Part shown: piece after piece, positions 3,309-44,089 of the stretch
How positions within the stretch are numbered: position 1 is the first letter of the stretch
Layout: every line of letters begins with the position of its first letter
Source: Escherichia coli
GTDB lineage: Bacteria > Pseudomonadota > Gammaproteobacteria > Enterobacterales > Enterobacteriaceae
Assembly: GCF_024502345.1 (NCBI RefSeq)
Contig: NZ_JALDNN010000001.1
Length of the DNA: 64,000 nucleotides
Direction: 5' to 3' (one strand)
Program-made: the position numbers and the translations under genes
Notes under the pieces: generated by a model
Database searches by the model: none
What the model saw: the letters and a program-made list of their open reading frames with translations, nothing else
What the model was told of the DNA's origin: nothing

Positions 3309-4466
3309 TTATTGTTTCGATTCGGTGCTGGCGTTTTCCTGGCTGGAGGAAATTGCTCGTGCTTTGATACCTGGACGAATGCGTTGCAAACCGGAAACGA
3401 TCACCCGATCGCCAGCCTGCAAGCCAGAGGTGACAACCCACTGGTCGCCGATGGCTTTGCTGGCTTCAATTTCGCGTAGCTGCACGACATCGTCTTTATC
3501 CAGAATGAGCGCCGTTGCTTTACCCTGGGCGTTGTGGGTGACGCCTTCCTGCGGCACCAGTAATACATTCTGGCGGCTACCTTCATCCACTAATGCCGTG
3601 ACATACATGCCAGGCAGCAAGTCACCATTTGGGTTGGGGAAAATCGCCCGTAACGTCACGGAGCCCGTGGTTTCATCAACCGTCGGGTCGGAGAATTTCA
3701 GCGTGCCGGTCTGGCTGTAACGTTTACCATTTTCCAGATTGAGCTGTACTGGCGTACTGCCCTGAACCTGTTTGATTTGCCCACTGGCGACCTCTTCTTT
3801 CATGCGTAAGAAATCTTGCACCGACTGCGTGAGATCGACATAAATCGGGTCCAGACGTTGTACGGTAACCAGCGAATCTGCCTGATTAGCGGTAACGAGT
3901 GCGCCGACGGTCACCGACGATTTCCCGCTGACGCCCGTAATCGGCGAGGTGACATTCGCGTATTGCAGATTGATCGTCGCCTGTTCAACAGCCGCTTTGG
4001 CGACGGTGACATTGGCTTCTGCTTCATTCAACTGGGTGCGCGCGGTGTCGTAATCCTGACGGCTAACGTAGTTGGTCTTCAGCAACGATGCCTGGCGGTT
4101 AAAGGTGATGCGGGCATTGCTGGCGGTAGAGAGCGCTTTCGCCAGCGAGCCTTTGGCGGAGTTTAGCTCGGCCTGTAAAGGTGCAGGATCAATCTGATAC
4201 AGCGAATCGCCCTGGTTCACTTTATCGCCTTCGATAAAGTTGCGTTTAATGATAATACCGCCCACCTGGGGACGTATCTCGGCAACTTCATAAGGAACGG
4301 TTCTACCGGGCAATTCGCTCAACACATTGACCGACCCAGGGGAGAGTGTGACGACACCGACCTCAGGCGTCATGGCGGCGGTGTTTTCCGCCGATTTGTC
4401 ATCGCAGGCGGTGAGCATCGCGCCGCAGAATAACAACGGTATTAACAGCTTTCTTCTTCTGTTCAT
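3309..4466 (-). CDS. mdtE: RND efflux periplasmic adaptor (membrane fusion) lipoprotein, 385 aa
   Basis: ORF with lipoprotein signal peptide and lipobox (LTAC); HlyD/AcrA-like sequence; 24 bp upstream of mdtF on the same strand. Confidence 0.95.
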   Translation of the reverse strand: MNRRRKLLIPLLFCGAMLTACDDKSAENTAAMTPEVGVVTLSPGSVNVLSELPGRTVPYEVAEIRPQVGGIIIKRNFIEGDKVNQGDSLYQIDPAPLQAELNSAKGSLAKALSTASNARITFNRQASLLKTNYVSRQDYDTARTQLNEAEANVTVAKAAVEQATINLQYANVTSPITGVSGKSSVTVGALVTANQADSLVTVQRLDPIYVDLTQSVQDFLRMKEEVASGQIKQVQGSTPVQLNLENGKRYSQTGTLKFSDPTVDETTGSVTLRAIFPNPNGDLLPGMYVTALVDEGSRQNVLLVPQEGVTHNAQGKATALILDKDDVVQLREIEASKAIGDQWVVTSGLQAGDRVIVSGLQRIRPGIKARAISSSQENASTESKQ

Positions 4467-4804
4467 TTTATTCCCTGAAAATTCTTGAGAAATAACGGTT
4501 CTTTAAATTGCGCGCGAGGAGAGATATGAGGGATTTACAGACCAGCGGCATAGTGGGGTTGTCAGCCAGTAAGGTGGGATACAGGCATAGTGATCGACAT
4601 GGTGAGGTCAACGACAAAAAAAATGTTGCCGTTCTGCCAACAGTTCCTGCCAGCATTCGGGCAACGAAGGGTTCGACTGGTGGATACACATACCAGGGGA
4701 ATAAAGTCGTTTTAGCCTCTCCTTTAGTAATCACCGGGGGTAATGAAATCAGCATCTGCATCCCTCGTCATGCCAGCCATCAATTTCAGTTGCTTATGTC
4801 CTGA

Positions 4805-5332
4805 CTAAAAATAAGATGTGATACCCAGGGTGACGATGTCGCTCATACGTCTTAGTTTCAGCTTGTACATAATGTTGAATTTCTGAATCTTTAATGTTTG
4901 TTGCGAAATATTAAGCGTCGACGTGATATTGCTTTCATTTTTATTTTTCAGAATCAATTGCATAATTTTGAACTGATTATGTGAAAAACATAATTGTGAA
5001 TTCTTATGGGGCAAGTGTTTACCATAAGTAATCTCAAGAAGATTTTTGATACTTTCTTTGCGGCTAACAAAATAAATAGGCGCTTTAGCTTTTAGTTTAC
5101 TGATGTGATAAGGTGCCAAAACAATAATTCTCTCGGCATCTAATTTCTCCAGAAATTTAATCGCTTCTTCATCAAGGATATGATTGTGATAGGTATCAAT
5201 GATAACCTTGAAGGGTTTATTGCCTACTTTTTTGATCTCTGACAGGGAATTGATTTTTATCATTTCGTGATTATCTTTCAACTGCCAAAAGCCCTGTAAA
5301 AGAAAAGAATCTTTCGTCATGAGAAAAATCAT
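4805..5332 (-). CDS. gadE: LuxR-family acid-resistance transcriptional activator GadE, 175 aa
   Basis: ORF 4805..5410 trimmed to the internal ATG giving MIFLMTKDSFLLQGFW..., the GadE N-terminus; C-terminal LuxR-type HTH; AT-rich gene. Confidence 0.9.
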   Translation of the reverse strand: MIFLMTKDSFLLQGFWQLKDNHEMIKINSLSEIKKVGNKPFKVIIDTYHNHILDEEAIKFLEKLDAERIIVLAPYHISKLKAKAPIYFVSRKESIKNLLEITYGKHLPHKNSQLCFSHNQFKIMQLILKNKNESNITSTLNISQQTLKIQKFNIMYKLKLRRMSDIVTLGITSYF

Positions 5333-6080
5333 AACTTGCTCCTTAGCCGTTATCGTTTCGAACATGTCATCCTTTTCATTATTTACATCCTTGTCCGAAT
5401 CGTTGTTCAATATAGTAAACGCCTATAAGAACTTTGCCCTTCGTGAACTAATACGTCTATTAACACTAATCAATACTTCAGATTTATCCATCACGCACTC
5501 CATATATTGATCCTAAGTAAGATCCCTGGTTGTTATCAGCTTGTAAATAGTAAACAAAAAGTTAACGTTTGCGGATTACTGCCCAAGAATAAGTTATCAA
5601 TAACCAGTTTGTGATCTCTGAAGAATATTACTAAAGTTAAAATGTAATCCGATTTAAATATCGAGTCTCCTTGTTTCGACTTAAGCTGGCAATTGGATTG
5701 CCAGCTTTCTTTTAACGCATTGAAATTACCTGAGTAAATAACGCATTCATGTCTTCAGGTTTTTATATAGCGTCTGGAGACATGGATATTTATGCAATGT
5801 AATCAACGCCAGTTGCAAAAAAATGAACCCGGATTACTTATTTAACCGCCCATAGCATCAACGCTTACGGAACTCTTTGTTCACTTTCCCACAGCACTTT
5901 TAAAACATTAAACCTGACTACGGAAAATATCAGCCATGATAATGTTTGAAATGGCTAATTTGCCATGGAGTGAAAAAAATTAGATGAAATTCAGTAGGTT
6001 GAAATAATCACTAGCAGGTAATTATTTCAATGATAGTGCGCAATTGATCTACAACACTGCGTAGCGGAGAGAGTATTAAT
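5333..6080 (-). promoter_or_regulatory. Long AT-rich gadE upstream regulatory region (multiple promoters expected; an antisense sRNA arrS is reported in this leader)
   Basis: About 750 bp non-coding AT-rich sequence upstream of gadE; knowledge of the gadE sensory-integration region; individual promoters not mapped here. Confidence 0.5.
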
Positions 6081-6113
6081 CGGATCATAGTCACATCAAG
6101 TGACTATGATCCG
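6081..6113 (-). terminator. Perfect 14-bp stem / 5-nt loop hairpin just downstream of hdeD (candidate hdeD terminator or binding site)
   Basis: cggatcatagtcac-atcaa-gtgactatgatccg read directly from the sequence; lies 18 bp past the hdeD stop codon. Confidence 0.5.
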
Positions 6114-6130
6114 GGTGACAACCGGGATAA

Positions 6131-6703
6131 TTATTGCTGCTTAACGAACAAACTGGCGAAGCTGAACAGGCTGGCGGCGCTAAATATCAGTTCAATTCCC
6201 ACCAGTGTGGAAACCAGCGTTACAGACACCATCGGCGTTGCACCAAGGAATATCCAGGCAATGACGATATCCAGCACACCAATAACGAGCTGTAGCCAGC
6301 TGCCTTTCATTGAACGCTGACGATACCAACTCATCAGGCGAATAACCCCTGCAACACAGAACAAACCGGCAATAAATGCCGCAATGGCAAAAATGCCCAG
6401 CTCCGGTGCGCGGATGAAGAAATAGCCGATCAATAAATAGGCGACTGCGACGAGGAAACCGGATAATACCGGCCAGAAATTATGACTGCGGTTGCTGAAT
6501 AATCCAACAATAAGCGCAATGCCCGAACAGATTAATAATGCACCTACTACTGTGCTTAAAATATCGCCAGAAACGAACGGGAAACTGATACACAGCAACC
6601 CGACGATAAACAGCAGCACGGCAATAAACTGGATTGCTCTGCGATGCTTTTTCAGCATCTCCAGATCAAACTTCAAAATTGTTGCCTTATCTATATATAA
6701 CAT
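6131..6703 (-). CDS. hdeD: Acid-resistance inner membrane protein HdeD, 190 aa
   Basis: ORF translation MLYIDKATILKFDLEMLKKHRRAIQF... with multiple TM segments; divergent from hdeAB. Confidence 0.93.
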   Translation of the reverse strand: MLYIDKATILKFDLEMLKKHRRAIQFIAVLLFIVGLLCISFPFVSGDILSTVVGALLICSGIALIVGLFSNRSHNFWPVLSGFLVAVAYLLIGYFFIRAPELGIFAIAAFIAGLFCVAGVIRLMSWYRQRSMKGSWLQLVIGVLDIVIAWIFLGATPMVSVTLVSTLVGIELIFSAASLFSFASLFVKQQ

Positions 6704-6957
6704 AGAACCACCCTATAAAATTAAGAAGAAAATCCCCTGCTATCAATCTATGCCAAAAACGCGTCTAAGAATGCAGTCGATTTAATAAAAATTTCCTAAT
6801 TGCAGTATCTGATGCATCTGTAACTCATTGTATTGAAATAAAAATATCTGATTTTGATATTTTCCATCAACATGACATATACAGAAAACCAGGTTATAAC
6901 CTCAGTGTCGAAATTGATTCGTGACGGCTCTTTCACTTTATAGTTGAGGATATTACG

Positions 6958-7290
6958 ATGAAAAAAGTATTAGGCGTTATTCTTGGTGGTCTGCTTCTTC
7001 TGCCAGTTGTGAGCAATGCAGCGGATGCGCAAAAAGCAGCTGATAACAAAAAACCGGTCAACTCCTGGACCTGTGAAGATTTCCTGGCTGTGGACGAATC
7101 CTTCCAGCCAACTGCAGTTGGTTTTGCTGAAGCGCTGAACAACAAAGATAAACCAGAAGATGCGGTTTTAGATGTTCAGGGTATTGCAACCGTAACCCCA
7201 GCTATCGTTCAGGCTTGTACTCAGGATAAACAAGCCAACTTTAAAGATAAAGTTAAAGGCGAATGGGACAAAATTAAGAAAGATATGTAA
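6958..7290 (+). CDS. hdeA: Periplasmic acid-stress chaperone HdeA, 110 aa
   Basis: ORF with signal peptide and sequence MKKVLGVILGGLLLLPVVSNAADAQKAADNKKPVNSWTCEDFL... matching HdeA. Confidence 0.96.
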   Translation: MKKVLGVILGGLLLLPVVSNAADAQKAADNKKPVNSWTCEDFLAVDESFQPTAVGFAEALNNKDKPEDAVLDVQGIATVTPAIVQACTQDKQANFKDKVKGEWDKIKKDM

Positions 7291-7405
7291 TTCCGGGAAT
7301 GCGTTACATCGTACTTCCTTGCATATTGAACAGGCCGGAATATCTTCTTTAAAAGCAGCTATTCCTCCTGTTCATATATAATCTCTATATTGAATGGGTT
7401 ACAAA

Positions 7406-9015: not shown

Positions 9016-9170
9016 AACCGACTCCTGGTGCGGACATTAACTTTATAATCAGTTTGCCAAAGGTAATTAACAGGACAGGGCTTATAATAATAATAGTTAG
9101 CTTACTGTATATTAATTTTATGTAATACATGATGCAGATGCTGAGAAAGCATCTGCATCTTTCGGTGGTG

Positions 9171-14351: not shown

Positions 14352-14442
14352 GATGTAAAAAAACCGACTTCGCGTCGGTTTTTTTACTGTTCAGCCCTGA
14401 GTTGGTGGCTCTGGCTGGAGTGAGAATGCCATCATCTAACGC
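14352..14442 (-). ncRNA. agrA: agrA-like small antisense RNA (repeat copy nearest dinQ)
   Basis: Second copy of the same repeat with its own putative -35 ttgcaa / -10 tagcat and terminator hairpin at 14355..14385; ends approximate. Confidence 0.55.
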
Positions 14443-20122: not shown

Positions 20123-20170
20123 AAGTAAAGCAGGGTAGCGATAACGCTACCCTGCTTTCTGCAAGAATAA

Positions 20171-38591: not shown

Positions 38592-38624
38592 AACTGAACT
38601 TAATTTTATAAATTAAGTTCAGTT
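38592..38624. terminator. Perfect 15-bp inverted repeat with 3-nt spacer (candidate hicAB terminator or recombination/binding site)
   Basis: aactgaacttaattt-tat-aaattaagttcagtt read directly; T-rich tract follows on the plus strand. Confidence 0.5.
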
Positions 38625-43979: not shown

Positions 43980-44016
43980 GGTAACCCCAATGGATTAAAA
44001 TAGATGGCGGAAATCA

Positions 44017-44044
44017 GTATGACGATTTTAAGTATTCGTCATAC
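44017..44044. promoter_or_regulatory. NikR operator in the nikA promoter (GTATGA-N16-TCATAC)
   Basis: gtatgacgattttaagtattcgtcatac located 38 bp upstream of the nikA start codon; matches the known NikR dyad. Confidence 0.85.
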
Positions 44045-44089
44045 TGATTACCTGTTCTGGATCAATAGATGGGCAGTCGGGTGGGCGGA

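Follow-up and report, generated by a model that had tools for sequence, protein, structure and literature searches.

Does the perfect inverted repeat that lies between hdeD and gadE in Escherichia coli belong to the hdeD mRNA, to the gadE control region or to neither of them? The gadE promoter has been defined as the whole 798-bp intergenic region (e.g. PMC3708157), and fusions described as full-length thus include the hairpin, which is given no role in the studies that used these 798-bp fusions (e.g. PMC3708157). The MG1655 annotation lists no feature between hdeD and arrS. We examined the hairpin in a 64,000-nucleotide (64-kb) stretch of E. coli DNA, referred to as the window in the rest of the text, which closely matches E. 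coli O157:H7 (99.9% identity) and in which the acid fitness island is inverted relative to MG1655. The features that matter for the argument are listed in Table 1.

Table 1. Coordinates of the hairpin and of neighbouring features, numbered along the window unless marked MG1655.
Feature	Position	Strand	Remarks
hdeD CDS (190 aa)	6131-6703	-	Stop codon 6131-6133; RefSeq annotation; gene whose transcript the hairpin very probably ends
Perfect 14-bp stem with 5-nt loop	6081-6113	- (hdeD sense)	MG1655 3657585-3657617
hdeD 3′ UTR, 54 nt	6077-6130	-	From the first base past the stop codon as far as the position of the Term-seq 3′ end published by Adams et al. (2021)
C-rich, G-poor untranslated stretch, candidate Rho loading/termination zone	5921-6076	-	Composition and published Rho-region peak
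ArrS	5644-5713	+	MG1655 3657985-3658054; ends at the terminator-like hairpin 5683-5707
gadE	annotated ATG at 5332	-	
GadF/ES205	4616-4687	-	Rfam match
hdeAB	from 6958	+	

The stem-loop and the RNA 3′ end behind it

A first-pass annotation, made from the sequence alone, had described a perfect 14-bp stem-loop placed 18 bp past the hdeD stop codon and about 750 bp upstream of gadE, and our measurements agree with this description. The two arms (6081-6094, CGGATCATAGTCAC, and 6100-6113, GTGACTATGATCCG) are 14 nt each, 100% complementary and separated by a 5-nt gap. The stop codon and the hairpin are 17 nt apart, the hairpin beginning at the 18th nucleotide past the stop, and the distance from the hairpin to the gadE ATG is 748 nt. 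On the hdeD-sense RNA the hairpin reads CGGAUCAUAGUCAC-UUGAU-GUGACUAUGAUCCG. Six of its 14 pairs are GC (43%), and the energy of the isolated hairpin is −25.0 kcal/mol. Folding of a 101-nt context gave z-scores of −4.6 for the hdeD-sense strand and −4.95 for the antisense strand, the full 14-bp stem being present in both the MFE and the centroid structures. When the 64-kb window was shuffled 100 times with its dinucleotides preserved, a perfect hairpin of at least 14 bp with a loop of 3 to 10 nt arose in only one shuffle, so the hairpin exceeds what chance would produce. Other perfect hairpins of 12 to 15 bp in the window are found at 38592-38624 (15 bp and very AT-rich), 44012-44049 (with a 10-nt loop), 9131-9159, 14355-14387 and 20127-20158; the last two carry A and T runs on their flanks and resemble bidirectional terminators.

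The stem is not followed by a classical U-run, as had already been remarked. On the hdeD-sense strand the 8 nt past the stem (AUUAAUAC) contain 3 U and no run longer than 2, and the corresponding 8 nt on the antisense strand (GGUGACAA) contain no U-run either. The sequence that precedes the stem (UUGUCACC) has no A-tract, and a terminator scan did not call the hairpin on either strand. The same scan flagged as terminator-like a small + strand hairpin with an AU-rich tail at 6110-6126. We considered this second hairpin as a conserved element and rejected it, as it overlaps the main stem, is absent from the MFE structure and is destroyed in B2 strains.

Mapping of hdeD 3′ ends, which the first-pass annotation had proposed as a check, proved to be contained in a published supplementary table. 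The Term-seq data of Adams et al. (2021, eLife, PMC7815308; Supplementary file 1, sheet M63 0.4) place a 3′ end at MG1655 3657621 on the + strand, which is hdeD sense there, with an average of 1150 reads, a modest count obtained for an end that was called in one of three growth conditions; the sequence context quoted for this end contains the hairpin. Position 3657621 corresponds to window 6077, 4 nt past the stem (…GAUCCG-AUUA). Its ‘orphan’ label stems only from its distance of 54 nt from the hdeD stop codon, the cut-off for ‘primary’ ends being 50 nt (PMC7815308). It is now assignable to hdeD, thereby defining an hdeD 3′ UTR of 54 nt. On the opposite strand, the same tables contain no 3′ end near the hairpin among the three conditions (PMC7815308). 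The TERMITe supplements contain no hdeD entry, and the literature on hdeD terminators, bicyclomycin or ProQ yielded nothing specific to the hairpin.

An RNA end immediately behind a very stable hairpin with an AU-rich tail could also result from a weak, non-canonical intrinsic terminator releasing some polymerases at AUUAAUAC, perhaps with the assistance of NusA/NusG and with Rho as a back-up, and mixed or transitional cases have been discussed by Dar & Sorek (2018, PMC6061677). We regard this explanation as unlikely, although it deserves to be weighed. The first 8 nt hold only 3 U, with no run above 2, and an A-tract before the stem is lacking; the stem itself is long with a GC content of just 43%, it escaped the consensus scan, and the U-poor tail is kept in all lineages. 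The intrinsic terminators of ArrS and GadF, which appear in the same Term-seq table, have their ends at +6 and +8 inside U-tracts (PMC7815308), compared to +4 for hdeD, and carry 5 to 7 U compared to 3 U behind the hdeD hairpin.

Alternatively, the 3′ end might be made by an endonuclease, for example by RNase E cutting between AUUA and AUAC in read-through RNA, in which case the hairpin would stabilise the upstream product. RNase E prefers a U two nucleotides after the cut. The mapped end does fall in an AU-rich single-stranded stretch with a U two nucleotides past the presumed cut. We assign a low probability to this route, which would alter only how the end arises and not the role of the hairpin.

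The sequence between the hairpin and gadE

A region of Rho-dependent termination has been reported on the hdeD-sense strand, with its peak at MG1655 3657733 (Supplementary file 2, PMC7815308). This peak corresponds to window 5965 and is located 116 nt past the stem. It derives from DirectRNA-seq carried out with and without bicyclomycin (PMC7815308), in which upstream and downstream reads amounted to 101 and 28 without the drug and to 251 and 475 with it, resulting in a Rho score of 6.83 (p 2e-20) that is confounded, as the 800-nt downstream window takes in the gadE promoters (T3 start at about 3657800) and leader. Given that downstream reads outnumber upstream reads in the presence of bicyclomycin, part of the Rho signal must be gadE transcription and not hdeD read-through.

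The composition of the RNA past the stem was also examined. C outnumbers G by 27 to 15 in the first 120 nt and by 35 to 20 in 160 nt (5921-6080), and this downstream C:G ratio of 1.7-1.75 ranks at the 97th to 98th percentile of same-size windows taken on both strands of the 64-kb window. C exceeds G downstream of the hairpin in all eight Escherichia lineages examined, though the sequence itself is poorly conserved. Rho dependence of the hdeD 3′ end is, on these data, only suggestive.

From about 120 nt past the hairpin, beyond an intervening 120 nt that are divergent, a near-identical block is found in all Escherichia species (approximately 5880-5960). The block reads AATTAGCCATTTCAAACATTATCATGGCTGATATTTT…GTCAGGTTTAATGTTTTAAAAGTGCTGTG, and with it the conserved gadE P3 control region begins. 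It sits at the P3 start (−566, window 5898) and holds the inverted repeats 5899-5910/5940-5951 and 5929-5937/5951-5959. Closer to gadE, a 3′ end has been mapped at MG1655 3658019 on the + strand, inside the long gadE T3 leader (Adams 2021, PMC7815308). This end corresponds to window position ~5679 on the - strand, opposite the hairpin that terminates ArrS (5683-5707). The ArrS hairpin may act bidirectionally, ending some gadE leader transcripts prematurely. In the O157 clinical isolate 180-PT54 (NZ_CP015832.1), the control region is interrupted by an IS1 element about 100 bp before the gadE ATG.

The first-pass annotation had also considered a protein-binding dyad and had attached the repeat to the regulatory region of gadE. 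As a DNA site, the repeat would be recognised by a dimeric regulator of gadE, in the distal part of its 798-bp control region, or of hdeD. The dyad is perfect and its upper-stem sequence, TCATA(G/A)TCAC/GTGACTATGA, is kept as sequence and not merely as pairing across Escherichia; moreover, a P3 fragment of the gadE region has been reported to bind ArcA-P in a low-resolution EMSA. Nevertheless, we consider such a site very unlikely. Of the mapped gadE starts the most distal one (T3, −566) is about 180 nt downstream of the hairpin, and the 120 nt that separate the hairpin from the conserved P3 block are poorly conserved. A search for a second copy as a regulator site found no related dyad in the 64-kb window at up to 3 mismatches, and none was found in E. 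coli genomes; nothing is annotated at this position in MG1655, and the gadE literature consulted assigns no regulator site to it. In addition, a protein site does not predict paired changes in both half-sites, which the hairpin displays (see below). The dyad proposal is not supported, and the link to gadE regulation reduces to one of position: the element belongs to the hdeD 3′ end. In practical terms, the ‘798-bp gadE promoter’ comprises, in its distal ~50 bp, the end of the neighbouring hdeD transcript, and reporter and deletion constructs of hdeD or gadE should retain or drop the hairpin deliberately.

Variation of the hairpin within and beyond E. coli

Sensitive BLAST searches found the hairpin in 5412 of 5426 complete E. 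coli genomes, at a single locus per genome; the ‘2 places’ per genome returned by BLAST are the palindrome matching itself on both strands. The K-12/O157 form was matched in 3934 genomes, and a second, B2-type form, whose typical carriers include SaT040 and ATCC 25922, was matched in 1307. The B2-type form has U-A in place of the basal C-G pair, and an extra C-G pair lengthens the stem to 15 bp. Variants were surveyed in 60 genomes, sampled at even intervals from the 5412 that carry the hairpin: 39 are identical to the window, 14 have the 15-bp B2-type form, 4 differ at the outermost pair alone, 2 have one internal difference (a loop change in one and an A.C at pair 2 in the other), and the remaining one (E7-1N7) retains pairing via G.U pairs. 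The central 12 bp are untouched by any variant in this sample.

The B2 loop differs at 3 of its 5 positions. Free drift through three substitutions was rejected as an explanation, since the TTAAT loop of related lineages, when reverse-complemented, gives exactly the hdeD-sense loop of the B2 lineage, ATTAA, which calls for one event. This change is a single inversion at the perfect palindrome, probably brought about by template switching, and it shows that DNA-level palindrome events do happen at the hairpin.

In a laboratory stock of ATCC 43894 (NZ_CP194055.1), a deletion extending from inside hdeD to inside mdtE has taken away gadE together with its entire control region, the hairpin and GadF; all that is left is a truncated mdtE and the initial ~70 nt of hdeD. 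An E. coli-type hdeD (98% aa) accompanied by the hairpin is also present on an 8.6-kb contig (NZ_JAUFQN010000010.1) deposited under ‘Flavobacterium paronense CECT 8460’, almost certainly because E. coli DNA contaminated the assembly.

Among the GTDB representatives carrying hdeD, the hairpin is also present in E. albertii, E. whittamii, Escherichia sp. E1V33, strain E69 and two more Escherichia lineages. The spacer between the stop codon and the hairpin diverges across the genus in sequence as well as in length (17 nt compared to more than 40 nt), and the flanks diverge among species while the structure of the hairpin persists. The U-poor tail after the stem is likewise kept in all Escherichia lineages. 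In the lower stem of the non-coli lineages, GGAU/AUCC is replaced by GCCU/AGGC, i.e., two adjacent pairs are altered on both sides, and across Escherichia three pairs are altered in this manner (UA/CG, GC/CG and AU/CG). In nine distinct Escherichia sequences, 94.4% of the pair cells are paired, compared to 25-46% when the 3′ partners are slid by 1 to 3 columns. The covariation score of these nine sequences is above that of all 500 shuffles, with the caveat that the double-sided changes trace to few independent events and that perfect palindromes can regain pairing through template switching. Judged from these comparisons the hairpin is under selection, though comparative pairing identifies neither the strand nor whether the hairpin acts as RNA or as DNA.

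In E69 and E7-1N7 pairing is kept by G.U on the hdeD-sense strand, whereas in the albertii/whittamii/E1V33 group a mid-stem pair is mismatched as A.C when the sense strand is read and would become U.G on the antisense strand. Because the lineages disagree, this asymmetry does not assign the functional strand. An opposite-strand function would make the hairpin an end or a stabiliser for antisense transcripts that run into the hdeD 3′ end, ArrS read-through being one example. The antisense RNA folds just as well, its hairpin is the stabler one in the albertii/whittamii/E1V33 group (−22 to −24 compared to −18 to −20 kcal/mol), and the small second hairpin with an AU-rich tail is on the antisense strand (6110-6126). 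That second hairpin is destroyed in B2 strains, however, and E69 and E7-1N7 favour the sense strand. Moreover, no 3′ end was called near the hairpin on the antisense strand in the three conditions, and ArrS stops at its own strong terminator about 370 nt away, which makes a function on this strand highly improbable in our estimation.

Outside Escherichia, the HdeD homologue of Kluyvera cryocrescens is 57% identical, and straight after the stop codon of its gene there is an unrelated 11-bp hairpin (−19 kcal/mol; positions 2082-2107 of the locus examined) that is without a U-run and sits between convergent genes. The gene downstream of this hairpin, on the opposite strand, codes for 176 aa. An exact-pattern scan of public metagenomes found the E. 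coli hairpin only behind hdeD, plus 4 unrelated chance matches, one of which is an ordinary U-tailed terminator.

A candidate protective 3′ stem-loop and its relation to known systems

By a modest balance of probability, we favour the hypothesis that a monocistronic hdeD mRNA carries the hairpin as its protective 3′ stem-loop and that Rho stops read-through before the gadE promoters. One part of this hypothesis is more secure: the hairpin very probably acts within the hdeD-strand RNA and determines where the mRNA ends. RNA polymerase would pass through the hairpin because no U-tract follows it. Rho would then load on the untranslated C-rich, G-poor RNA just past the hairpin and halt transcription within roughly 100 to 200 nt, ahead of the gadE P3 promoter. 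The heterogeneous tails would be trimmed to the base of the stem by 3′-to-5′ exonucleases (PNPase, RNase II), leaving a stable end 4 nt past the stem. In this manner the hairpin would both fix and protect the end of the hdeD mRNA, and Rho would exclude hdeD transcription from the gadE control region. We infer Rho dependence, exonucleolytic trimming and the stabilising effect of the hairpin alike. The trp operon provides a precedent, as the end at the trp t hairpin arises by trimming after Rho-dependent termination at trp t′.

The first-pass annotation had raised the possibility that the hairpin is an RNA processing or stability element and not just a simple terminator. The Term-seq end at +4 and the lack of a U-tract speak for this reading, and the compensatory changes across Escherichia, together with the C-rich, G-poor stretch and the reported Rho-termination region downstream, strengthen it further. 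As a protective 3′ stem-loop, the hairpin would mark where hdeD transcription is insulated from gadE, and it provides a clean example of a U-less element of this type, with compensatory changes in Escherichia and a non-homologous counterpart in Kluyvera. Beyond annotation its significance is little: the hairpin is an ordinary, individually undescribed member of a well-known kind of element, whose 3′ end had already been published without being assigned.

A more far-reaching reading, to which we give only a slender chance, is that the hairpin and the Rho site together constitute a conditional insulator between hdeD and gadE. If this were true, relaxed Rho activity under stress would allow hdeD transcription to enter the 750-nt gadE leader, and since hdeD is itself activated by GadE, this would create a transcriptional positive-feedback arm. 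Expression of hdeD and gadE in single cells is heterogeneous and correlated (rho = 0.78, PMC9769608), and read-through of the insulator would contribute to this correlation. In a remoter variant, the mid-stem A.C of E. albertii, E. whittamii and E1V33 could form A+.C at low cytoplasmic pH and render the stability of the hairpin pH-dependent.

How does the hairpin compare with known systems? A scan of 4400-7400 against Rfam 15 ruled out a known RNA family, with no match at the hairpin at E ≤ 1; its sole real match was ES205 (GadF). A sub-threshold match to CRISPR-DR32 inside gadE (window 5154-5190, - strand; 22.7 bits compared to a gathering score of 48, E 0.83) is almost certainly due to chance. 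A repeated or mobile element (REP, MITE or IS end) was also ruled out, given that the hairpin is single-copy in 5412 genomes and that its metagenome copies are linked to hdeD. The hairpin resembles REP/BIME sequences in being an extragenic palindrome behind a gene, of a kind found with Rho-dependent ends and able to stop 3′ exonucleases, but unlike them it occurs once per genome, bears no REP annotation and has no similarity to other loci. With operator-type dyads, such as might be expected in the 798-bp control region of gadE, it shares a symmetric sequence in the hdeD-gadE intergenic region; it differs in lying outside the mapped promoters, in having no known cognate regulator or second site, and in evolving by paired changes. 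Like an intrinsic terminator, it is a stable hairpin directly behind a gene with an RNA 3′ end just after it. In contrast to such terminators, it is followed by 3 U in 8 nt and not by a U-tract of 7 to 8 nt, its stem is 43% GC and longer than usual, and its RNA end is at +4, compared to about +6 to +9.

Rho-ended transcripts have been reported to possess precise steady-state 3′ ends just past stable stem-loops that lack a U-tract (Dar & Sorek 2018, NAR, PMC6061677). The stem-loops of this class guard against PNPase and RNase II, and a rut-like excess of C over G is found just downstream of them (PMC6061677). The hdeD hairpin differs from this class in the unusual length and perfection of its stem (14-15 bp) and in a Rho signal that is blurred here by the gadE promoters. 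It shares with the class a stable stem-loop right before a precise 3′ end, with neither U- nor A-tract, followed by an excess of C over G and by a reported bicyclomycin-sensitive region just beyond.
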